A DNA stretch of 64,000 bases from sequence record NC_028927.1, one strand, 5' to 3'. Both the position numbers and the translations under genes were made by a program. Source of the DNA: Escherichia phage slur02. Below the pieces are notes generated by a model. The model ran no database searches. It saw only the letters and a program-made list of their open reading frames with translations, and had not been told where the DNA came from. Positions within the stretch are counted from its first letter, which is position 1, and every line of letters begins with the position of its first letter. Positions 2,072 to 64,000 of this stretch are shown here, piece by piece.

Positions 2072-3396
2072 TTGATTTCCTCTAAATCTTTAGTGTATTC
2101 AGTAACTACATCAGTAGTTTTCCAATATTCGTTTTCTTCTTTCTTAGCTTTAGCTTCTTCAGCAAGTTTCTTCGCTTCATCGGAAGTCATATGAAAAATA
2201 TTCATTCCAACTAGTTTATCAACATAAGAAGAATACATATCGATTTTCGAAAGTTCTTCGGTCAGTTCTTTACGAGTTTTACCTTGTACAACAATTTCAC
2301 CTGAAATTACTTTCTTAATGAAATGTGCCTTGGCAAAGGCTAAACGAAAAGCTGACTCAGTTTCTTTGATTTTGTTATCAATTCGTTTTTGGACATAAGT
2401 TTTACGAACTTCAACAAAGTCTTTAATTAAATCGACTACGTTATCGTAAACTTGTAGCTTTCCTTTCTCATTAATAACGGTAATATTTTGGGAACGACGC
2501 TCAATCAACCCAAAGTCTTTCATAATTTTTGCATGGCGTTCTTCTTCATTATCGCTCAAAGAATATTCTTTACGGAATTTAACTTTAAAGCCAAAACCAT
2601 GCTCACCACAAGCATCATCCCATGTAATGAAGCCTTTATCTTCAAGTGGGTCTAAGATTTTACTCACATAAGTTTCACGATCATACTTATACGGAATCTC
2701 AGTGATGTGCATTTGAGTTCGTGAAGTAAACTTATATGTTCCACGAATTTCATATTGTCCATCAATTTCAACGACTTCACCACGAAATTCTGGGAATTCT
2801 ACCTTCGGTTTAGTTACTTTCTTTCCTTGAAGAGCTTGTAGTACAGCTTTCTTGACAGAAGAAACACTATGAGGAAGAATGTAAGTTGCATAACCAGTTG
2901 CAATACCGGAAACGCCATTAAGAAGAACAGTAGGAATAATAGGCAAATAGAAAGCAGGCGGAATGTGTTCTTTATCTTGATGTACCGGAGCATACTCAGT
3001 ATCTTTATATACGTTATAGAAATTTTTACTTACACGAGCAAAAATATAACGACTTGCTGCTGCTTTTTGGACAGTACGAGAACCAAAGTTTCCTTGACCA
3101 TCTAACAGAGGAAAGTTATTATTCCAAGTGTTAGCCATCAAAGCACCTGCGTCTTGCGCAGAGTTTTCACCATGATGATATCCAAGGTCCGCTACACCAC
3201 CTGCAATAGAAGCGAGTTTGTGAAACTTATCTTTATTTCCTCGTGCCAAATCAAGAGCTCGAGCAATAACAAATCGTTGAACTGGCTTAAATCCATCAAT
3301 CATATTTGGAATAGCACGATTTTCAACCGTGTACATAGCATAAGCCAATGCTTCATTATCAATGATACTTTTTAAATCGCGATTATTCAGTTGCAT
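2068..3396 (-). CDS. 52: DNA topoisomerase II medium subunit gp52 (GyrA-like)
   Basis: 442 aa, same length as T4 gp52; GyrA-like N-terminus (AIPNMIDGFKPVQRFV). Confidence 0.9.
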   Translation of the reverse strand: MQLNNRDLKSIIDNEALAYAMYTVENRAIPNMIDGFKPVQRFVIARALDLARGNKDKFHKLASIAGGVADLGYHHGENSAQDAGALMANTWNNNFPLLDGQGNFGSRTVQKAAASRYIFARVSKNFYNVYKDTEYAPVHQDKEHIPPAFYLPIIPTVLLNGVSGIATGYATYILPHSVSSVKKAVLQALQGKKVTKPKVEFPEFRGEVVEIDGQYEIRGTYKFTSRTQMHITEIPYKYDRETYVSKILDPLEDKGFITWDDACGEHGFGFKVKFRKEYSLSDNEEERHAKIMKDFGLIERRSQNITVINEKGKLQVYDNVVDLIKDFVEVRKTYVQKRIDNKIKETESAFRLAFAKAHFIKKVISGEIVVQGKTRKELTEELSKIDMYSSYVDKLVGMNIFHMTSDEAKKLAEEAKAKKEENEYWKTTDVVTEYTKDLEEIK

Positions 3397-4517: not shown

Positions 4518-4631
4518 TCACCTCAAGGAGTATAAAATCCAAATGCAGTTGTTGACCATCCCATCCAATACGGAAAAATTTGCACCAATGTAAAACATAA
4601 GAATATAAAACCAAATGTTTAGTAAATTCAT
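4518..4631 (-). CDS. small hydrophobic peptide (37 aa)
   Basis: Hand-translated MNLLNIWFYILMFYIGANFSVLDGMVNNCIWILYSLR; TAATG coupling to upstream gene. Confidence 0.3.
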   Translation of the reverse strand: MNLLNIWFYILMFYIGANFSVLDGMVNNCIWILYSLR

Positions 4632-4828
4632 TATTTTACACCATTCCAAATTGTTTCAACCACAGATTTTAAACCATTTTGATGAATATCAATTCCGACT
4701 ACTGTCATCAAATAGATTCCAACTACAACTGAACCTAAGGCAAAAATCAGCATGAAAATGAATAAAGCCGGAAAAATATTATCGAAAAACCATTCAATAA
4801 ATGTAAAAGCACTGCGTTTACGCTTCAT
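4631..4828 (-). CDS. small membrane protein (65 aa)
   Basis: Track ORF trimmed to ATG with GAGGA SD (MKRKRSAFTF...); hydrophobic helix. Confidence 0.4.
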   Translation of the reverse strand: MKRKRSAFTFIEWFFDNIFPALFIFMLIFALGSVVVGIYLMTVVGIDIHQNGLKSVVETIWNGVK

Positions 4829-4835
4829 ATTTTCC

Positions 4836-4949
4836 TCACATAAATCCAAAGTAAACGTTTAATACATCAATCATTAAAACGATTGGGAATATACTCAAAA
4901 CTATTAGTATTATAACTACATTCCATATAGCTTTAATAATCTTTTTCAT
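4836..4949 (-). CDS. small membrane peptide (37 aa)
   Basis: MKKIIKAIWNVVIILIVLSIFPIVLMIDVLNVYFGFM; the longer track ORF contains an early promoter, so start moved to ATG after GGAGGAACAG. Confidence 0.35.
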   Translation of the reverse strand: MKKIIKAIWNVVIILIVLSIFPIVLMIDVLNVYFGFM

Positions 4950-5192
4950 TTTCTGTTCCTCCGTAGTTGATAGGGTAATAATACCACGGAAGAACAGTCC
5001 TGTAAACAACTTTTTTAAAAATATTCGTAATAAATGTGAATACCAACTACTACCGCTGAAACCTGTGCAACCCACCACGCACAAGCAATAAGTACAGAAT
5101 TCATAATTTTCATAATAACCTCATCACAAAAGTAAATGTTAAACAAATTACTGGAATACTAATTAACCAAACAAAACACCACCATAGTGAAC

Positions 5193-5465
5193 TCATAGCT
5201 CAATCTCAGCGATTTTCATTTCATTACTATTAATAGCCGCTTTAAGACTATCTGAAAGAATTACATTCCAGTGGTCATTCATATGACCATTAATTAAGCG
5301 TGTAATTTCTTCTGGAGTTGAAAAATAAGGCGTATCAGACTCCCAATGCGATAATCCTAAGCGAGTATAAATCATACCTTCATCATCGCTAGAATATTCA
5401 ACTGACACAAACTCATCAGTTATTTTATGTTTAGCGTAATAAAATTTAAATTTCATTTTACTCAA
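5193..5465 (-). CDS. hypothetical protein (90 aa)
   Basis: Track ORF; ATGA overlap with upstream ORF. Confidence 0.5.
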   Translation of the reverse strand: MSKMKFKFYYAKHKITDEFVSVEYSSDDEGMIYTRLGLSHWESDTPYFSTPEEITRLINGHMNDHWNVILSDSLKAAINSNEMKIAEIEL

Positions 5466-55590: not shown

Positions 55591-56478
55591 TTAAGATTTA
55601 AGTAAATCAACAATTTTAATTAATTTTTCACGCTCAGATTTAGCTTTACTACTCAGTCCAGATAGTCTGAAAATTTCATCGTCATATTGTTGAATAGAAA
55701 TATTCAGCTCTTCAATCTGCTTATTAAAATAATCAATTTGTTCAGAATGTTTTTCGTTACTACGAACTGGTACAGGTTTTGTAGGCAATTTAGTTGAACT
55801 GGATTCATCCGGGCGATAAATTAAAATACAACTTGAACCAATAGGGCATTTAGCACCAGATGAATATTCTAATGTTCCGGCTTCTTTTAAAACTTCAAAA
55901 GCTAAACAGAGATGATGCCCCATATTAACATAATCTGTAGAGTGAGCTCTGATATAATAATCATCGCCGCGAATACTAAATTTAAAGCATTTAAGGTCTT
56001 CTGTATTATTGGTCTTAAAAATCATTTGTTTATCTAGACCTTTAGCTAATCGAGCGCCTAATGCTAATAATCGTCGTTGATTTTCCCACAAATCCGTAAT
56101 CATTTGATCGAATGATAATTTAGGCATTAGTCGACCATAAAGGTCATATCCTTTATTATAATTGCGAAGGATTTCACTCGCATTAATACGAGACAACGCT
56201 CCAATTTTATTAAGGGCTTTCATGATGCGATCAGATAAACTCATTCCAGACCCGTTTGTTCGCTGTAAATGTTTATCTAATCCAAACCCAATATCAACTT
56301 TAAACTTATCTAAAATTTCTGCATGAACATCTCTGTCAATAACATTCAAATCCAAAGTTGGGTTAAATCTATGAAAAAATTTATCTGGCTCTCCACGACG
56401 AAGTACAGTCCATTCATTCAATTTTTTATTAACTAAAGATTTAATTACTGCATTGACATTATTAATTACTACTGACAT
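55591..56478 (-). CDS. paralog family member D (about 295 aa)
   Basis: Start moved to ATG after GAGGA SD; motif LLALGARLAKGLD; C-terminal coiled coil. Confidence 0.6.
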   Translation of the reverse strand: MSVVINNVNAVIKSLVNKKLNEWTVLRRGEPDKFFHRFNPTLDLNVIDRDVHAEILDKFKVDIGFGLDKHLQRTNGSGMSLSDRIMKALNKIGALSRINASEILRNYNKGYDLYGRLMPKLSFDQMITDLWENQRRLLALGARLAKGLDKQMIFKTNNTEDLKCFKFSIRGDDYYIRAHSTDYVNMGHHLCLAFEVLKEAGTLEYSSGAKCPIGSSCILIYRPDESSSTKLPTKPVPVRSNEKHSEQIDYFNKQIEELNISIQQYDDEIFRLSGLSSKAKSEREKLIKIVDLLKS

Positions 56479-56485
56479 ATTTTCC

Positions 56486-56893
56486 TCACTCAATTTCAAT
56501 TTTACTAAATACGCAGAATATGATGGAAAAGACTATATAAGCACCGCATACAGATTGAACTAATACCATTCCAAAGAACCAAACAATATTATCAAACAAT
56601 GTCTGTTTTACGTCGAAAGGACGTAAACTTACAGTAATATTATCGCCTTTTTCTATTGATGAATACATCTCTGGGGAAATATATTCACTAAATCTATAAC
56701 CGTCTTTGAGTTCATATACGGCAATAAACGATAAACTAGACCCCTTTCCTTGAGTTCCTGTAAGGGTATTAACTACAGTAACATCATAATCTTTATAATG
56801 CATATAATCATTAATTGCGTAATAACCATATGCAATTACTATACATAAACAACATATCAATAAATTCAATCTTTTAATTATCAACTGTTTCAT
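56486..56893 (-). CDS. membrane protein (135 aa)
   Basis: N- and C-terminal hydrophobic helices. Confidence 0.5.
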   Translation of the reverse strand: MKQLIIKRLNLLICCLCIVIAYGYYAINDYMHYKDYDVTVVNTLTGTQGKGSSLSFIAVYELKDGYRFSEYISPEMYSSIEKGDNITVSLRPFDVKQTLFDNIVWFFGMVLVQSVCGAYIVFSIIFCVFSKIEIE

Positions 56894-56948
56894 AATAATC
56901 TCAATTAAAAGGGCTTAGAACCATTATACCATCCTTGGTATAAAGCGG

Positions 56949-57476
56949 TTATGCGAGTACCGTCTTTAACCGTTCTTCAAACTTCCGAAGAGTATTCTGG
57001 CGTTCAGCTCTTTGCTTTTTGTAAGTTTCAATACGCTCTGAAATGAGAGTGTATCGTTCATTTACTGATTCTTTCATAAAATCAGGAATTTCACGAGAAG
57101 CTTTAATCTCGTCAAATTTATCAATAACAGCTTGCTCTTCAGCAATTAAGTTATCATACATCAAAATATCTTTCTTGATGAACTCAATATCTTCTTGAGT
57201 TACACGAGATAATTTAGATGCTTTATCCTTTTTGTACTGTTCGTTAGTATCACGAGACCAGTGTAATGTACGATTTTTATTCGTATTTTTGTAAATTTCT
57301 ACAATACCAATCTCATCAATAATAACGATCCAATTCCAACGAGATTTGTAAATTTGCCCTCCATCAACTGTGATTTCACCTCCGATTGAGATGTCATTAA
57401 AGAACTTGCTTTGTGCTTCTGATTTAAATTTACCATCATTGTAATTTACCAGGTTGAAAATATCTTTAGCGTTCAT
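56949..57476 (-). CDS. hypothetical protein (175 aa)
   Basis: Track ORF; early promoter module upstream. Confidence 0.5.
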   Translation of the reverse strand: MNAKDIFNLVNYNDGKFKSEAQSKFFNDISIGGEITVDGGQIYKSRWNWIVIIDEIGIVEIYKNTNKNRTLHWSRDTNEQYKKDKASKLSRVTQEDIEFIKKDILMYDNLIAEEQAVIDKFDEIKASREIPDFMKESVNERYTLISERIETYKKQRAERQNTLRKFEERLKTVLA

Positions 57477-57504
57477 TTTCTGTTCCTCCGTAGTTGATAG
57501 TTGT

Positions 57505-57538
57505 ATAGTACCACAGAGGAACAGTCTTGTAAACCACT
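57505..57538 (-). promoter_or_regulatory. early promoter with conserved leader
   Basis: Conserved module GTTTAC...TACTATACAACTATCAACTAC. Confidence 0.55.
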
Positions 57539-57851
57539 AAAAGAAACTTCTTTCACAATTTTTTCCACTGAACCACGCGCTCACTGCTTTCTTAGTCTCA
57601 GGAGCAGTGTTATCCATAAACCATTCAAAGGCAGCCTTTTTATGATTCTGGAGGGCTTCTCGGGCTTTAATCTGCTCACGGTCTATTAACACTAACATAT
57701 GAGCCTTTCTTGTCACCAAGGGCTTCTTATGATTTTTTGAATACTCCCAGTCATTTGTCCATCGCATTGTCGTTGCGAATTGAAATACAGCTTCTTTAAT
57801 TTTAGTTTCGTAAATTTCACGAGCCTTTGAGTATAACATCATTACCTCCAT
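57537..57851 (-). CDS. hypothetical protein (104 aa)
   Basis: Track ORF. Confidence 0.45.
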   Translation of the reverse strand: MEVMMLYSKAREIYETKIKEAVFQFATTMRWTNDWEYSKNHKKPLVTRKAHMLVLIDREQIKAREALQNHKKAAFEWFMDNTAPETKKAVSAWFSGKNCERSFF

Positions 57852-57940
57852 TTACCAGTTTAATTCTAGTCATCTTTTTGATGGCAGTCCATATAATCTA
57901 TTTCTGAACTGCCTTTTTATCTTAGAAGTCCTCTTATGAA

Positions 57941-58909
57941 TTATTTCAGAAGAGTAACCTCAGCAATTTCTTCCCAACCGTTTTTGTCGGTCATAATAAA
58001 GTCAGCAAGATAAAGAGCAGTACGCAGTGAAACATTGCGTAAACGATTAACATTGACTTTCATCCATGATAATGCTTTATAAGTTTCTTCATCAGAAAGA
58101 CCGCGCTTTTGCATCATGTCGGTTGAAAGAATAACATCTTCAACCCTGACCATAATTTCTTCATTAGTGTGAACACCCAAATCCAAATAAACTGAGCGGG
58201 ACACTAATGCTTGTAAATGTGGAGCAAGTTTAGTACCACGGTCTAATTCGCGGTCAATGTCAACGTTTGTGATAAAAACAATCGTTCCTTTAAATTCAAA
58301 CTCACGCTCAATGCCTTTTTCTTCTAAGTAAGAAGATGCAGTGCTCCAGCAGACTTTACGGGTCTCTCCAGTGTCCAGAGCAGCTTTCAGAAGATTAAGA
58401 ATGTCCATATCAGAGAAAACATCCACATCATCAATCAAAAGGACAGAATTCTCTTCACGATTATTCCAAAGCTGTTCATAAAGACCGATACCGGAGATTT
58501 TACCGTTAATGCTTTTATATTCAATGTATCCAATATCATTTGCTTTATTTAAAGCTTTATCTAAAGAATACGTTTTACCAATACCTGCCGCACCAGAGAT
58601 AATTAATGAACGAATGTTTCCGTTAATAATACCATTCGTCATCATTCCCATAACATTAAATCTTTTATTAATGCGGGTTTTCATATCTTCATACGATTCT
58701 TTAACTTCTTCAACTTTTACACCATCATATGAAATGTCTGATTTGTAAACCCAAACACCGCGACGTTTACCGTCAATTTCAACAAAAACTTTACCATCTC
58801 CTTGCGCATCTACCGGAGCATTATCTGGGAACCATTCGCCTAAGAGCTCAAAAGTTCCAGAGATTTCTTTACCGAAGTAGATACCCTTATTGATAGTTAC
58901 AGTTTTCAT
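57941..58909 (-). CDS. predicted AAA+-like P-loop ATPase (about 322 aa)
   Basis: Walker A GAAGIGKT, Walker B LLIDDVD, sensor-1-like FITN; start set to ATG after TGGAGAATAAA; own early promoter. Confidence 0.6.
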   Translation of the reverse strand: MKTVTINKGIYFGKEISGTFELLGEWFPDNAPVDAQGDGKVFVEIDGKRRGVWVYKSDISYDGVKVEEVKESYEDMKTRINKRFNVMGMMTNGIINGNIRSLIISGAAGIGKTYSLDKALNKANDIGYIEYKSINGKISGIGLYEQLWNNREENSVLLIDDVDVFSDMDILNLLKAALDTGETRKVCWSTASSYLEEKGIEREFEFKGTIVFITNVDIDRELDRGTKLAPHLQALVSRSVYLDLGVHTNEEIMVRVEDVILSTDMMQKRGLSDEETYKALSWMKVNVNRLRNVSLRTALYLADFIMTDKNGWEEIAEVTLLK

Positions 58910-58943
58910 TTTATTCTCCAAATCCGTATCAGTTGATAGTTGT

Positions 58944-58976
58944 ATAGTACCATAAAGCTTTATGCTTGTAAACAAC
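58944..58976 (-). promoter_or_regulatory. early promoter upstream of AAA+-like gene
   Basis: Conserved module followed by TTGGAGAATAAAATG. Confidence 0.55.
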
Positions 58977-59003
58977 TTTGTGAAAAATTTTTGAAATAAA
59001 AAA

Positions 59004-59021
59004 AGGGAGCCCGAAGGCTCC
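59004..59021 (-). terminator. terminator downstream of nucleotidyltransferase gene
   Basis: GGGAGCC-UUCG-GGCUCCC then UUUUUUUAUUU. Confidence 0.75.
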
Positions 59022-59024
59022 CTA

Positions 59025-60038
59025 TCATTTATAATAACTTCGGTGGTTTTCAAGATAAACCTGTTCGAGGAAATTATTCCAAAAGCTCATATCTACTGTT
59101 TTAGGCATACCATTCTTAGAAGCTTCAGTAGATGCTGCTTCTACTTGATCGACCACATCTTCCAAAAACTCTTGAACCGTTTTAAATGGATGTTTACCCA
59201 ACTTCACGTCGAGAATAAATGGAGCGTCTTGAAGTGGATAAACCAAGTCACCAGTTTTGTAAATTTCCAATAGTTGAAGTCCACCACGACAAGCATGGCT
59301 CAGAGCTTTCCAGTCAATGCCTTCATTGGCTTCGGCCTTTCGAGCGCGTTCACCATATTCAGCATCTAATTTGTTCAGTGACTGCTTAAGCTCAATAAGA
59401 GAAAGCGTTGTCTGATATTTACGACCCAACACTGTGTAAAACGTCTGTGGGCCTGTTTTCTCATGATTATGGAACACCCATTCACAGAATTCGTTTTCTG
59501 GAAGACGATGCTTAATATCTTCAACTTTAGTACGACGCTGCTTAATGGAACCGTCTTCTTGGTAATCAACCCATTGCTCAGGGATTTGATTAACTACTTT
59601 CAATACATCACGTAATGCAGCCAAACGAGAACCCTTGACACCGTATTTAGAAGCTTGCTTGCGGACATATCCTAAATAGGATTTCATGTTAGTCGTATAA
59701 AAACGAGAACGGTTGTCTTGAATAAACTTCCACACATCAGGCAAATCTGATTTAACTACTAGCTCAGGTGGAGTGTGAAGCATATCCAATGCTACGGTTT
59801 CACCATCTGCTGCTAATTTAAAGAAATATTTAAGACTGTATAGTTCATGGTCAATATCATCTTTAGTGTTTTTAGATGATGTATTGTTAGTATTTTTACT
59901 CATATGCTCTTTAACATTTCCGATAAGAATATCGCGAGCAGGAGGAACAAAGATTTCTTTAAAATCTACATCAGATTCTGGGGTAGAAGTTCCATAAAGA
60001 TGACTACCAAAATAGCTTTTCATTACTGTTTTCATCAT
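59025..60038 (-). CDS. predicted Pol-beta-superfamily nucleotidyltransferase (337 aa)
   Basis: N-terminal FGSHLYGTSTPESDVDF ([GS]-x10-DxD) with third acidic residue about 60 aa later (VALDMLH); ATGA-coupled to upstream membrane protein gene; strong terminator downstream. Confidence 0.55.
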   Translation of the reverse strand: MMKTVMKSYFGSHLYGTSTPESDVDFKEIFVPPARDILIGNVKEHMSKNTNNTSSKNTKDDIDHELYSLKYFFKLAADGETVALDMLHTPPELVVKSDLPDVWKFIQDNRSRFYTTNMKSYLGYVRKQASKYGVKGSRLAALRDVLKVVNQIPEQWVDYQEDGSIKQRRTKVEDIKHRLPENEFCEWVFHNHEKTGPQTFYTVLGRKYQTTLSLIELKQSLNKLDAEYGERARKAEANEGIDWKALSHACRGGLQLLEIYKTGDLVYPLQDAPFILDVKLGKHPFKTVQEFLEDVVDQVEAASTEASKNGMPKTVDMSFWNNFLEQVYLENHRSYYK

Positions 60039-60496
60039 TCAGCCTTATATTCAATAACAGGACATACTTTAGCTTTACGAGCTTTTAAAAATTCGACGAT
60101 AATCGATTTCTTGGGTTGAATAGGAGGTAAACCTTTATACGCTCTATCAATATTTTCTACGTGTAAAGCATAATCCTTTTTCCATTTATAATCTTTATAT
60201 TTTTCACGCAAATGTGCAGGAATAACAAATGAACCGATAATAAGTAAAACAACCAAAAGCGCAAGTATAAATGCTGATGGAAGCAAAGTCCATAAACTAC
60301 CGAAAATAAGCCAACGTTGTAGGCTTTCTGCACAAATAATTGTTAACCCTACGAGTATAGCACACCCAAAAATAGAAACGAAAAATGTAGGAATGGCAAT
60401 AGACCAAAAATATGCGCATAATGTCTTAGGTCGTTGCCATTCATCGTTAAACAATTTGAATAATTTATAGTGCCAAGAGTTTTCATTAATAATCAT
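60035..60496 (-). CDS. integral membrane protein (153 aa)
   Basis: Three predicted transmembrane helices. Confidence 0.5.
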   Translation of the reverse strand: MIINENSWHYKLFKLFNDEWQRPKTLCAYFWSIAIPTFFVSIFGCAILVGLTIICAESLQRWLIFGSLWTLLPSAFILALLVVLLIIGSFVIPAHLREKYKDYKWKKDYALHVENIDRAYKGLPPIQPKKSIIVEFLKARKAKVCPVIEYKAE

Positions 60497-60498
60497 AA

Positions 60499-61020
60499 TT
60501 ATCCTTTCATTGAAGGCGTAATGGTTGTTAAATACTTAATCATAGCTTCAGCTTCTGATTTTGATAATGAAATTTCTCCATTGTTTTGACGAATAGAAAT
60601 AAAATCCGGATGACGGTCACCACCAGCTTTTAAAACACACATATAAGTATCAACTTCACCTTCAATATTTGAAATGATTGAAGCAGTTCCACATGAATGT
60701 GGTTTTTGATAAATCAATGCAGCTTTTCTTCCACCATTTGACTGTTCATAGGCTTTTAATACATCAAACAAATCAGTTCTTTTATCAATAGCTAAAATGT
60801 TATTTTCATCTTCAATGTTAAATCCTTCGGATACTTCATAAAGCGTTACCCATAAATCACCGATGTCAATAACAGCATTTACTTTTCCACGGCTTTCAAG
60901 AGTATGACAAATTTTCTTGATTTCGTCATAACTCATTTTAATAATATCATCTCCTTGACTAAGGAAGATGTCATTTTTAAATTCAACACGAATTAAACCA
61001 CTTTCACTTGAAATAAACAT
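60499..61020 (-). CDS. hypothetical protein (173 aa), paralog of 61027..61572
   Basis: Shared C-terminal and central motifs with neighbour. Confidence 0.5.
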   Translation of the reverse strand: MFISSESGLIRVEFKNDIFLSQGDDIIKMSYDEIKKICHTLESRGKVNAVIDIGDLWVTLYEVSEGFNIEDENNILAIDKRTDLFDVLKAYEQSNGGRKAALIYQKPHSCGTASIISNIEGEVDTYMCVLKAGGDRHPDFISIRQNNGEISLSKSEAEAMIKYLTTITPSMKG

Positions 61021-61026
61021 ATTTCC

Positions 61027-61572
61027 TCACTTTGAAATCATAGTTGGAATAACAGAATCAAGATAAGTCTTTAGTGCAATAGCTTCGTCTTTGGTAAATG
61101 TGACAATATGTGCTCGAAAATCATCAATTTGACGAATAGTTAAGACATCTCCATCTTCATAACATTTTGATACGTTTAAAACAGTTTCATCATTCTGATT
61201 GCAAGCGTTAGTAATAATAGCATTGCAATTTTTAAACCATTTTAAACTATGTTTTCTTTCATTAGAATAATAAAAATATTTAATCTTATCTATAAAACTA
61301 TCCCAATGGATAACTGATAAGCATATTGACTCGCTTTCAATATTAAATCCTGGGCATGAAGAATAAAAATGAATTTTATGCTTATCATTAATGCTTACAA
61401 TTTTATCAGTATAAGGATTTTCAATTTTGGTTAAATGAATGATTTCACTAGGCGTAAAATACAGCATATCGTCTTCTTGTGTCAAACGATACATATTATT
61501 TACTTTTTCTATAGCCAATTCACCAAAAAGTGAACTAACTTCTAATACTAATCGTTTCGCCGCTACCGTCAT
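61027..61572 (-). CDS. hypothetical protein (181 aa), paralog of 60499..61020
   Basis: Track ORF; sequence similarity to neighbour. Confidence 0.5.
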   Translation of the reverse strand: MTVAAKRLVLEVSSLFGELAIEKVNNMYRLTQEDDMLYFTPSEIIHLTKIENPYTDKIVSINDKHKIHFYSSCPGFNIESESICLSVIHWDSFIDKIKYFYYSNERKHSLKWFKNCNAIITNACNQNDETVLNVSKCYEDGDVLTIRQIDDFRAHIVTFTKDEAIALKTYLDSVIPTMISK

Positions 61573-61701
61573 TACATACTCCTCTGAATCATATCAATAA
61601 TGTTGTTTACCAGATTATAAGTAAACATTGGGTAATTATATTGAATCATCACATACACAACAAACAAAACTTTCATTCTCTTCTCCTTGGCAGTTGACAA
61701 G

Positions 61702-61738
61702 ATTACTATACCATAACCTTGCCAACTTGTAAACCATT
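61702..61738 (-). promoter_or_regulatory. early promoter upstream of paralog pair, membrane protein and NTase genes
   Basis: GTTTAC, 17 nt, TATAGT. Confidence 0.5.
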
Positions 61739-61910
61739 AAATGACGTTTTCAATAAAATTCTGAAGCTTTGTATGAGCATCAACCATGATTTTCATTTCT
61801 TCTTTGGCGAAAGCTATACCTCTTTCCCGAGAAGAACACTCATAGTCAGAAACTGCATTAGCATATTCTTCAATTAACTTCATTAAAAACATCTGCTTTT
61901 CAGTTTTCAT
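61737..61910 (-). CDS. small protein (57 aa)
   Basis: Hand-translated MKTEKQMFLMKLIEEYANAVSDYECSS...; AGGTGG SD. Confidence 0.3.
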   Translation of the reverse strand: MKTEKQMFLMKLIEEYANAVSDYECSSRERGIAFAKEEMKIMVDAHTKLQNFIENVI

Positions 61911-62094
61911 TATTCCACCTAATCATTTCAAGATATTGAACTAACTTAGCTTTAGATTTATCCAAATCCTTTTTAGCTGCTTCTATACCGTCGTATGAAT
62001 ATCCTTCACAATGCTCAACTGCTAATTGATATGAATCTATTTCAATATCACGTGCTAATTTAATGATTTTTTCAAACTGTTCGCGTGTTAGCAT
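61900..62094 (-). CDS. hypothetical protein (64 aa)
   Basis: Track ORF. Confidence 0.45.
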   Translation of the reverse strand: MLTREQFEKIIKLARDIEIDSYQLAVEHCEGYSYDGIEAAKKDLDKSKAKLVQYLEMIRWNNEN

Positions 62095-62096
62095 AC

Positions 62097-62300
62097 TTAA
62101 ACTCTCGTATTATGATCGATAATTTCATCAAGAAACATATCTAACGCTTCTACAGCATTATTAACTTTATCTTCAAGTTCTTCAATACTTTTATTTGCAA
62201 TGCCTGACGAAAACCAAGCAAAGTCACTAAGTTCCTCATCTGCTTTACGAATTAAAGCTACCAATTCCTTAATTTTATCCGCTTGTTCGATACTAATCAT
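62097..62300 (-). CDS. hypothetical protein (about 67 aa)
   Basis: Track ORF trimmed to ATG coupled by TAATG. Confidence 0.4.
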   Translation of the reverse strand: MISIEQADKIKELVALIRKADEELSDFAWFSSGIANKSIEELEDKVNNAVEALDMFLDEIIDHNTRV

Positions 62301-62488
62301 TATTCCACCACATATGAAAGAGAGAATATTGCACACGCCATGTGAGTTGCAACTTCATCACACATATTATAACGTTTCTTAAGAAATTCTACAAGTTCTT
62401 CACTAGTAACTTCATCCATGTCGACGAAAAAATCACCATTAATGATGACGTAGATATTTCCTTCTTGATTAAGTGCTTCAATTTTCAT
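62300..62488 (-). CDS. hypothetical protein (62 aa)
   Basis: Track ORF trimmed to ATG after AAAGAGGAG SD. Confidence 0.45.
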
Positions 62489-62513
62489 GATGTTCTCCTC
62501 TTTATCCGATAGT

Positions 62514-62548
62514 TGTATAGTACCACAGCTCAAACGGAAAGTAAACCG
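62514..62548 (-). promoter_or_regulatory. early promoter with conserved leader
   Basis: GTTTAC, 17 nt, TACTAT; directly after UUCG terminator. Confidence 0.55.
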
Positions 62549-62562
62549 GTAAAATGAAAAAA

Positions 62563-62578
62563 GTCTCCCGAAGGAGAC
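62563..62578 (-). terminator. terminator downstream of rI.-1-position gene
   Basis: GUCUCC-UUCG-GGAGAC then UUUUUUCAUUUU. Confidence 0.7.
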
Positions 62579-62583
62579 TAATG

Positions 62584-62970
62584 TTATTCGAGGGAAAGAA
62601 GATACTTACTCTGGTAAAACATTCCAGTAATATCATCTATCGTGCTTTGGATGGCTGGAGGCATTTCTTTATAAATGCTGTTAGATTGGTCTAGTATGTG
62701 ATCAATCATTTTAATTGTGTCGGTAGGAAGTTTACTGGCATCTGGAATTGAAGGTGTGTATTTTCTACCAGAATACCCCAAATATTGCTCACCAAATTTA
62801 TCAATCAAATCTGGCAACTCGGAGAAAATAAAATCGTATGCTTTGTGTCTAGCATAACTTTTAGTTTCAAAATGTGCAGAATGAAAATAAGCTTGTGCAG
62901 CCATTAATAAACCTAAGTATTCATCTGCCTTTGAAGGTTTTCCACTTTGTGAAAAGTCGCTGAATTTCAT
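62584..62970 (-). CDS. hypothetical protein (128 aa), rI.-1 position
   Basis: Track ORF adjacent to rI. Confidence 0.5.
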
Positions 62971-63260
62971 TCAGTCTCCAATTTAATGTTCATAATTCTA
63001 GCGTATGATTGTGCCATCTCCGCGCCTCGCTCTATACATTCAAAATCAGAAGAGCACGGGTCATTTTTATAGGTCGTTCTCATAAAACTATAGAATTGTT
63101 CAGACGATTCTACGCTTTTATTTTCAAAAAGCATATAAACGTGCCTAATACCAGATTCCATAAATTTATCAAAATGAGGATCGACATTCGCTTCAATCGG
63201 TGGAGATAAAACAAATGACAATCCTAGCATGGCAAATAGTGCCGTTGCTTTTAAGGCCAT
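62967..63260 (-). CDS. rI: RI lysis-inhibition regulator
   Basis: 97 aa with N-terminal signal anchor, length as T4 rI; immediately downstream of tk. Confidence 0.8.
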   Translation of the reverse strand: MALKATALFAMLGLSFVLSPPIEANVDPHFDKFMESGIRHVYMLFENKSVESSEQFYSFMRTTYKNDPCSSDFECIERGAEMAQSYARIMNIKLETE

Positions 63261-63272
63261 AAAGGCCTCCTA

Positions 63273-63485
63273 TCATTTTTGTCCTGTATTTACTTTATGC
63301 CGATGCACGGCCTTAACTTTATCAAGGTATTTTTCAAAATTTCGCAATCTAGTATAGTCTGCCGGAGATTGGTTGAGTGATACTTCTCGACGCAAAGCTG
63401 AAATGATATTTCCAACTTCCCTACGAATTTCATCTAATTGAAGCACAGTAAGATTGCGAAGTTGCTTTTCAGTTAATTGTAGCAT
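63273..63485 (-). CDS. hypothetical protein (70 aa), rI.1 position
   Basis: Track ORF. Confidence 0.5.
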
Positions 63486-63527
63486 ATATACCCCTTTAGT
63501 TAGATAAACCTATTTATAACTTTTGCA

Positions 63528-64000
63528 CTAACCGAGCTTTTTAGTTAATTCATTCCAATGTTTTCTACACAAAGAAACATAAATTTCATCACCAATACAG
63601 ATTTGATTACCTTCTTTAACTGGTGTTCCATCTTCCATTAATCGAGCTGTCATAATCGCTTTTTTACCACAATGACAAACTGCTTTTAATTCAATAAGTT
63701 TATCTGCAATCGCTAAAAGTTCTTTAGAACCTTCAAATAATTTTCCAGCGAAATCAGTCCTTAATCCATAAGCCATAACAGGAACATTATATGTATCAAC
63801 AATTCGGCTCAATTGATGCACTTGTTCAGTTTTTAAAAACTGAGCTTCATCTACAAATACGCAATGAATATCTTTTTGTGCTTCAGCCCATTTATAGAAC
63901 TCGAAAATATCCATATCATCTGTAATAATATTCGCTTCCTGTTTAATTCCAATGCGAGAAACAACTTCACAGACAGAATCGCGAGTATCAATAGCAGGCT
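63528..64000 (-). CDS. tk: thymidine kinase, 3' part (5' end lies beyond window)
   Basis: Walker B VDEAQF and zinc cysteines; reading frame stays open to the window edge. Confidence 0.8.
   Translation of the reverse strand, partial: PAIDTRDSVCEVVSRIGIKQEANIITDDMDIFEFYKWAEAQKDIHCVFVDEAQFLKTEQVHQLSRIVDTYNVPVMAYGLRTDFAGKLFEGSKELLAIADKLIELKAVCHCGKKAIMTARLMEDGTPVKEGNQICIGDEIYVSLCRKHWNELTKKLG

Follow-up and report, generated by a model that had tools for sequence, protein, structure and literature searches.

The closest described counterpart of the operon studied here is the mobD.2–mobD.1–mobD–nrdC.11 cluster of phage T4 (NC_000866, 55.4–57.9 kb). The RNAs of its four genes are all classed as 'early', and at the protein level MobD.1 is classed as early and NrdC.11 as middle (Wolfram-Schauerte et al., supplement, PMC9697503). 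The T4 region nrdC.11–mobD.3 can be deleted (PMC9825161). In the 64,000-nucleotide (nt) stretch of Escherichia phage slur02 analyzed here (NC_028927.1; the window), the corresponding genes are mobD.2, two paralogs of the y05I family (A, the MobD.1 orthologue, and B), a gene for an inner-membrane protein, and nrdC.11, which encodes a nucleotidyltransferase. By comparison with the T4 annotation, they are situated between rI.-1 and nrdC.10, all on the − strand. Two further systems serve as references for the encoded proteins. T4 NrdC.11 has been assigned to cluster 5 of the RlaP similarity network, and the Pseudomonas enzymes PfRlaP and PaRlaP add one or two nucleoside monophosphates to the 3'-OH of damaged RNA (2025 preprint, PMC12776372); an earlier comparative study predicted that phage RlaP proteins restore nucleotides before ligation (PMC7824862). 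In Pur-α, repeats I and II pair intramolecularly, and repeat III completes the fold by dimerization (PMC7549692). The literature searched contained no functional study of mobD.1, y05I or nrdC.11, and y05I was nowhere mentioned in it.

In nucleotide comparison, bases 59000–62100 of the window matched Escherichia phage slur04 (LN881729, Tequatrovirus) at 100% identity and hundreds of T-even phages at 93–97%. What the region contains is a Tequatrovirus early transcription unit, mobD.2→nrdC.11, in the version carried by most T4 relatives, and it represents an ordinary T-even early gene organization in an already deposited genome. It shares with the T4 cluster the promoter motif, MobD.2, the position of the terminator and early expression; T4 MobD.1 (Y05I_BPT4 in UniProt) is 82% identical to paralog A, and NrdC.11 is about 97% identical (tblastn to T4T). 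The difference lies in the middle of the cluster, where T4 carries the HNH homing endonuclease gene mobD and slur04 carries paralog B and the membrane gene, neither of which has a T4 counterpart. The slur04 arrangement is common: the B-plus-membrane block is contiguous in 421 phage records, and at ≥80% identity paralog B was detected in 432 records and the membrane protein in 425. On balance, we lean towards reading the operon as co-transcribed cargo organized in separate modules, namely MobD.2, y05I together with the membrane protein, and NrdC.11.

To analyze the variability of the locus, home-made hidden Markov models of each domain were mapped onto 47 loci from annotated phages and IMG/VR. 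The linkage that holds is that of the y05I C-terminal repeat with the membrane protein, not with the transferase. The C-repeat ends directly upstream of the membrane gene in all 29 mapped Tevenvirinae loci that possess this gene, even where the y05I N-domain is missing, and the measured gaps between the C-repeat stop and the membrane-gene start range from −4 to +30 nt. The occurrence of this junction in every such locus is a new observation. The transferase and the membrane gene, by comparison, part company repeatedly. In nine loci, 0.4–1.7 kb of other genes lie between them; in Lw1, Aeromonas phage L9-6 and Vibrio phage VmeM-32 the transferase has no membrane or y05I gene within 5 kb; and in Aeromonas and jumbo phages the membrane gene has neither the transferase nor y05I within 6 kb. 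T4 and G2133 keep the transferase with the HNH homing endonuclease gene mobD in place of paralog B and the membrane gene. The two families also differ in abundance (1563 phage records for the transferase, 917 for the membrane protein) and in identity across genera, which is 65–95% for the transferase, 26–52% for the membrane protein and 24–58% for the y05I C-repeat. The original prediction, made from the window's letters, had suggested that tight coupling possibly reflects a functional unit such as a membrane-associated effector plus an enzyme, had proposed co-occurrence analysis as a check, and had set independent variation of these genes among related phages as the ground for giving the idea up. 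The co-occurrence analysis found neither consistent co-occurrence nor co-loss of the membrane gene and the transferase; the genes vary independently in T4, G2133, T2, the nine interrupted loci and the three phages with an isolated transferase, and the proposed unit therefore fails.

T4 and T2 provide two natural variants of the locus. Homology between T4 and slur04 stops at window position 61002 and picks up at 60039; between mobD.1 and mobD (T4 locus 5300–5373), the initial 19 nt of paralog B are left in T4 (ATGTTTATTTCAAGTGGAA; window 61002–61020). This break, together with the retained remnant, indicates that mobD did not insert between genes but took the place of paralog B and the membrane gene, and the presence of the first 19 nt of paralog B marks the T4 state as derived; the two genes were lost in one event. 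In T2, two independent records (LC348380 and PV648364) share five identical frameshifting deletions, one in the membrane gene, two in paralog B and two in paralog A (window positions relative to slur04: 60393, 60635, 60870, 61227 and 61456), and nrdC.11 and mobD.2 carry no frameshift. With these five frameshifts, T2 is a natural triple pseudogene mutant of the y05I–membrane module. Since T4 and T2 are both defective for it, the module has effectively never been studied in the classical systems.

The two paralogs, of 181 and 173 amino acids (aa), were correctly recognized as such in the original prediction. They share 29% identity over 176 columns (BLASTP, E=1e-10), and both exceed the Pfam gathering cut-offs of the two y05I domains, which are 24.9 for PF24449 (T4_y05I_N) and 27 for PF24448 (T4_y05I_C). 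The motifs by which they had been paired (GFNIE and the C-terminal YL…P[TS]M) turned out to be the most conserved columns of the family. Structure prediction, likewise proposed at the outset, was carried out for paralog B with AlphaFold2 (AF2; 33-sequence alignment, predicted local distance difference test score (pLDDT) 84) and yielded three consecutive ββββα units. Repeats I and II form an intramolecular domain, corresponding to the Pfam 'N' domain, in which two ββββα repeats are packed as one domain in the manner of the PC4-like/PUR/Whirly fold; the single repeat III corresponds to the Pfam 'C' domain. Repeats I and III are similar in profile–profile comparison (probability 77%). On the basis of this model, y05I is a predicted three-repeat protein of the PUR/Whirly (PC4-like) fold, with the architecture seen in Pur-α. 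This supplies a fold and a domain logic for the hitherto uncharacterized MobD.1/y05I family.

The closest folds to the y05I model are the single-stranded DNA (ssDNA) or RNA binders Pur-α, MRP1/MRP2 and Whirly, with structure-based sequence identities of 6–16%. The same fold is also used for protein binding, as in SsgA-like proteins and type VII secretion system (T7SS) chaperones. The SsgB–SepG pair of Streptomyces offers a system for comparison. Sequence searches gave y05I no match to a PUR or Whirly family or to any Pfam nucleic-acid-binding family, and nothing meaningful in the PDB; a Foldseek search of the model against viral structures returned only family members and unnamed proteins. Two features set y05I apart from Pur-α, Whirly and MRP1/MRP2 (PMC7549692). 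Their net charge is basic, whereas the y05I family is acidic, with isoelectric points of 4.1–5.7 and, counted as net charge only, −5 and −8 for the two proteins and −5 (A) and −9 (B) for their N-domains. Moreover, y05I has stand-alone repeat-III forms, proteins of 68–83 aa consisting of the C-repeat alone, in Klebsiella-, Salmonella- and Kosakonia-type phages. Because of the strong acidity, the Pfam label 'putative transcription factor' is not secure, and protein binding or mimicry is at least as likely for y05I as a nucleic-acid role.

The membrane protein had been described as a three-helix protein, which the present analysis corrects: two peaks stand out in its hydropathy profile, and two transmembrane (TM) helices, at residues 26–62 and 68–90, are present in the AF2 model (41 sequences, pLDDT 82). 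They are preceded by a short N-terminal strand and a helix and followed by two basic cytoplasmic helices and a C-terminal strand. Given the charge of the C-terminal tail (+7) and the even number of TM helices, both termini are probably cytoplasmic. Conservation is concentrated in an N-terminal motif, SWH…LCxYFW, and a C-terminal motif, KAxKxKxCP; the invariant residues W8, H9, L26, C27, Y29 … A139, C145 and P146 fall in these two terminal segments, which are predicted to come together at the cytoplasmic side. For this protein, searches yielded neither a significant Pfam match nor a structural relative that was informative. The family is nevertheless very large, with 917 phage records and at least 5456 clusters at 50% identity (E≤1e-3). 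It includes proteins of Aeromonas phages and of Erwinia/Yersinia jumbo phages, and nearly all members are stand-alone proteins of 130–180 aa. The membrane protein thus draws attention to an uncharacterized and very large group of phage proteins marked by invariant His/Cys motifs.

Some homologues, among them P0277 and gp076 of Morganella phage MP1, encoded at 2430–3167 of the mapped locus, have a fused N-terminal soluble domain of about 90 aa, which does not resemble y05I and gave no significant match in Pfam. It probably accounts for the 84 N-terminal positions left unmatched in PHROG 944, and its fusion is consistent with an anchor role for the membrane protein. The 84-position extension had prompted the idea of a Rosetta-stone fusion between the y05I C-repeat and the membrane protein. 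It was rejected, as the C-repeat mini-proteins do not match PHROG 944 and the N-terminal segments of the longer homologues P0245, P0277, P0241 and Morganella MP1 gp076 have no PF24448 match.

Besides NrdC.11, a conserved enzyme encoded last on the transcript, what survives from these comparisons is an accessory unit of y05I and the membrane protein, which evolves rapidly and whose parts are acquired, duplicated, replaced and degraded jointly. That the two also work as a functional pair is close to an even chance, falling slightly short of it. The charges are complementary, with −5 and −8 for the y05I proteins against +7 for the C-terminal tail of the membrane protein. We hypothesize that the lone repeat III would pair with another repeat III, as a homodimer or an A–B heterodimer, by analogy with Pur-α. 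Such a repeat-III dimer could dock on the basic cytoplasmic platform of the 2-TM protein, which would leave the acidic N-terminal PUR-like domains tethered at the inner membrane and able to bind a host or phage partner. In a further and rather unlikely extension of this scheme, y05I and the 2-TM protein would form a previously undescribed membrane-tethered PUR/Whirly-fold device of Tevenvirinae, in which the repeat-III dimer sits on the His/Cys platform and the acidic domains capture or mimic a host factor, e.g., in anti-defense or host takeover. An accessory role in an arms race would be in keeping with how rapidly these genes evolve, as well as with their duplication, their replacement by a homing endonuclease and their decay in laboratory phages. 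All genes of the cluster are accessory, being dispensable in the laboratory and exchanged or eroded between relatives.

Several points weigh against this modular reading. The figure of 29 out of 29 overstates the number of independent observations, because the loci are phylogenetically related and their adjacency is largely inherited synteny. The membrane family is far wider than y05I and has other upstream genes outside Tevenvirinae, which excludes an obligate partnership with y05I. Paralog A occurs in the absence of the membrane gene in T4 and G2133, and MobD.1 is expressed in T4. No fusion of the y05I C-repeat with the membrane protein was found among the homologues searched. Docking, the tether and the role of NrdC.11 are proposals deduced from charge, model and family membership; the repeat-III dimer, in particular, is an analogy with Pur-α. 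Finally, the acidity of y05I argues against the nucleic-acid binding typical of its fold, and the case for NrdC.11 is subject to a Pfam match limited to residues 7–135 and the lack of an RNA ligase gene nearby.

For NrdC.11, membership in the RlaP family is indicated by a Pfam score of 43.9 bits against PF10127, above the cut-off of 23, with only residues 7–135 aligning to profile positions 23–142 of 249. The Polβ catalytic residues G11, S12, D23-x-D25 and D85 are invariant in seven orthologues of 65–95% identity. The protein thus resembles the RlaP enzymes in passing the family cut-off and in keeping the G-S…D-x-D motif with the third Asp. It differs from them in that it belongs to cluster 5, whereas the characterized PfRlaP and PaRlaP belong to cluster 1a, in that only its N-terminal 130 residues align, and in that it is not adjacent to an RNA ligase. 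The annotation from nrdC.5/nrdC.6 to tk.4 lists no ligase, and no RNA-repair gene stands next to nrdC.11, its neighbors being the membrane gene and nrdC.10; searches of the PDB with both the single sequence and the profile gave no meaningful match to a solved structure. In the Pseudotevenvirus Lw1, the gene directly upstream of the nrdC.11 orthologue, at 4606–5001 of the mapped locus, encodes a phage ProQ C-terminal-like domain (PF24203, E=3.6e-18); this RNA-chaperone-related neighbor is consistent with an RNA role for the transferase. By analogy with the family, we consider it probable that NrdC.11 performs nucleotidyl addition at RNA 3' ends. It would add one or two nucleotides to damaged 3' ends, complementing T4-type RNA repair, and would act independently of the y05I–membrane module. 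If NrdC.11 does repair RNA ends, the RNA-repair repertoire of T4 is extended.

Three other explanations of the cluster were considered. The five genes might form a single functional unit, in which a membrane-associated effector made of the paralogs and the membrane protein works with the nucleotidyltransferase. Co-transcription, tight packing and the ATGA overlap between the membrane gene and nrdC.11 speak for it, as does the direct junction of these two genes in Tequatrovirus, Gaprivervirus (VR25) and a number of related metagenomic loci. Against it stand the comparative data given above: nrdC.11 without the membrane gene or paralog B in T4 and G2133, T2 pseudogenes of A, B and the membrane gene beside an intact nrdC.11, the unrelated genes separating the two in nine loci, the unequal record counts, the isolated nrdC.11 of Lw1, L9-6 and VmeM-32, the membrane genes of Aeromonas and jumbo phages lacking it, and the discordant evolutionary rates. 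A single unit of this kind is accordingly very improbable. The opposite view holds that there is no functional link among the five genes, which would be unrelated accessory genes of a hyperplastic early region, their order being a matter of inherited synteny alone. Uniform density is characteristic of T4-like early regions, where many neighboring genes overlap; outside Tevenvirinae, the membrane family also follows other upstream neighbors at gaps of −4 to +2 nt; and T4 has kept paralog A and expresses it in the absence of the membrane protein. Such a view does not readily account for the junction between the y05I C-repeat and the membrane gene, which is never interrupted despite loss of the N-domain and insertions on the other side, nor for the decay of all three genes together in T2 with both flanking genes intact. 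We regard it as unlikely, while giving it serious weight.

It may also be that, as the Pfam name implies, y05I acts as a genuine binder of single-stranded nucleic acids or as a transcription factor and assists the RlaP transferase when RNA is damaged, e.g., by keeping tRNA fragments in place for repair, with the membrane protein being incidental. The nearest folds do bind ssDNA or RNA (PMC7549692), y05I is co-transcribed with an RNA 3'-end transferase, and a ProQ C-terminal-like domain is encoded upstream of the transferase of Lw1. The charge of the family, down to −9 in the N-domain of paralog B, its use of a fold also found in protein binders, and the missing match to a Pfam nucleic-acid-binding family all run counter to this proposal, as does the distribution: y05I is restricted to Tevenvirinae while the transferase is far broader, and T2 lost y05I and kept the transferase. 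This explanation is therefore improbable, and we retain the reading of separate co-transcribed modules. The separation of the y05I–membrane unit from the transferase tells experimenters which genes to delete together.

Co-transcription itself is well supported. The best sigma-70-type match of a scan covering 7.1 kb is TTTACA-17-TATAGT, with TG ahead of the −10 hexamer. It lies upstream of mobD.2 and matches at 10 of 12 hexamer positions; its GTTTAC…TATAGT core recurs in T4 and T2, in the diverged phage F2 and in two relatives from metagenomes. The wider pattern GTTTAC-N17-19-TAnAnT occurs nine times in the 64-kb window, always on the − strand, which is the strand of early transcription, and never on the + strand. 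From the site upstream of mobD.2, transcription would start at about 61698. The single early promoter expected at about 61702–61738 is thus present, as the best site falls inside that interval, yet it probably does not act alone. Another promoter of early type, GTTTAC-N18-TACTAT with TG before the −10 hexamer, is located at about 62546–62516 (−), just past the strong terminator that follows rI.-1 (62579–62562). The scan found no − strand terminator-like site between this promoter and position 59004, including inside the unit, which makes it probable that the proximal promoter is not the sole feeder; judging from the sequence, transcription of mobD.5 to mobD.2a probably continues into the mobD.2 operon. 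Strict patterns detected neither a late promoter (TATAAATA) nor a MotA-box middle promoter inside the operon.

At the distal end, an intrinsic terminator starts two bases past the nrdC.11 stop codon and consists of an 8-bp GC-rich stem, a UUCG loop and a U7 tract (folding energy −17.5 kcal/mol, z=−4.1; none of 200 shuffles folds as well); it is annotated at the same place in GiZh, wV7, G2133 and JB75. Host sigma-70 RNA polymerase would start at the proximal promoter, probably joined by polymerase reading in from the distal one, cross the five tightly packed genes and stop at this hairpin. With a conserved promoter, a ribosome-binding site for each gene, no internal terminator, a strong terminator at the end and early RNAs in T4, the co-expression put forward in the original prediction is borne out, and it is very likely that the five genes form one transcription unit. 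The gene past the terminator, nrdC.10 (within 57941–58972), encodes an AAA-type ATPase (weak AAA/STAND matches, phrog_1250) and has its own early-type promoter candidate (TTTACA-17-TACTAT, 58972–58944). This candidate and the terminator place nrdC.10 in a unit separate from nrdC.11.

The features of the locus are listed in Table 1. The span initially given for the operon, 60035–61737, was meant to include the nucleotidyltransferase, which at 59025–60038 falls outside it. Stop/start overlaps had been described for the last three genes. Such an overlap exists between the membrane gene and nrdC.11 (ATGA), whereas 2 nt lie between paralog B and the membrane gene; the only other overlap is that of mobD.2 and paralog A (TAATG), and 6 nt separate the two paralogs. 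Each of the five genes is preceded by a Shine–Dalgarno site. Good matches to curated Pfam or PHROG families exist for four of the five proteins, and the membrane protein matches a PHROG only.

Table 1. Features of the mobD.2–nrdC.11 locus and candidate early promoters in the slur02 window
Feature	Position	Strand	Description and evidence
Early (sigma-70) promoter, T4-type	61705..61733	−	TTTACA, 17-nt spacer, TG, TATAGT; best match of promoter scan
mobD.2, 34-aa hydrophobic micro-protein	61572..61676 (codons 61575–61676, stop 61572–61574)	−	phrog_3515, E=2.8e-22
y05I paralog A, MobD.1 orthologue, 181 aa	61027..61572	−	PF24449 128.8 bits, PF24448 74.7 bits
y05I paralog B, 173 aa	60499..61020	−	PF24449 114.9 bits, PF24448 79.0 bits
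2-TM inner-membrane protein, 153 aa, PHROG 944	60035..60496	−	AF2 model, hydropathy
nrdC.11, Polβ-type nucleotidyltransferase, RlaP family	59025..60038	−	PF10127 43.9 bits; phrog_388, E=2.7e-138
Intrinsic terminator	58996..59023 (hairpin 59023–59004)	−	Terminator scan, fold energy
Candidate early promoters, GTTTAC-N17-19-TAnAnT	61734, 54557, 51270, 46441, 27120, 22589, 19152, 14511, 10228 (span 10199–61734)	−	

The small hydrophobic open reading frame noted at the head of the operon is T4 MobD.2, a protein of 34 aa with its own GGAG ribosome-binding site. Its core, QYN[YH]P[ML]FTYN, is invariant across T4-like phages of Escherichia, Klebsiella and Salmonella, which identifies it as a real conserved gene. 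Among the cluster proteins, the PADLOC defense models gave no match at E≤0.01, the sole one being at chance level (E=0.022), and NCBIfam gave no informative match; Rfam at gathering thresholds found nothing within 56000–64000. In some Tequatroviruses, one or two extra small genes (61 and 88 aa) lie between mobD.2 and mobD.1, the stretches concerned being 2863–3316 in the mapped locus of wV7, 2709–3162 in that of G2133 and 2873–3058 in that of GiZh, and GiZh carries an F2-like mosaic copy of paralog A, so the unit is modular even inside one genus. A GiZh-type loss of paralog A, suggested by a coverage of 87%, was rejected, as the open reading frames reveal a diverged F2-like copy with an ambiguous base. 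Wrongly transferred names are a widespread problem of deposited genomes, where mobD.x genes appear as 'molybdopterin-guanine dinucleotide biosynthesis protein MobD', nrdC.11 as 'thioredoxin', and y05I as 'thymidine kinase' or 'helicase loader'.

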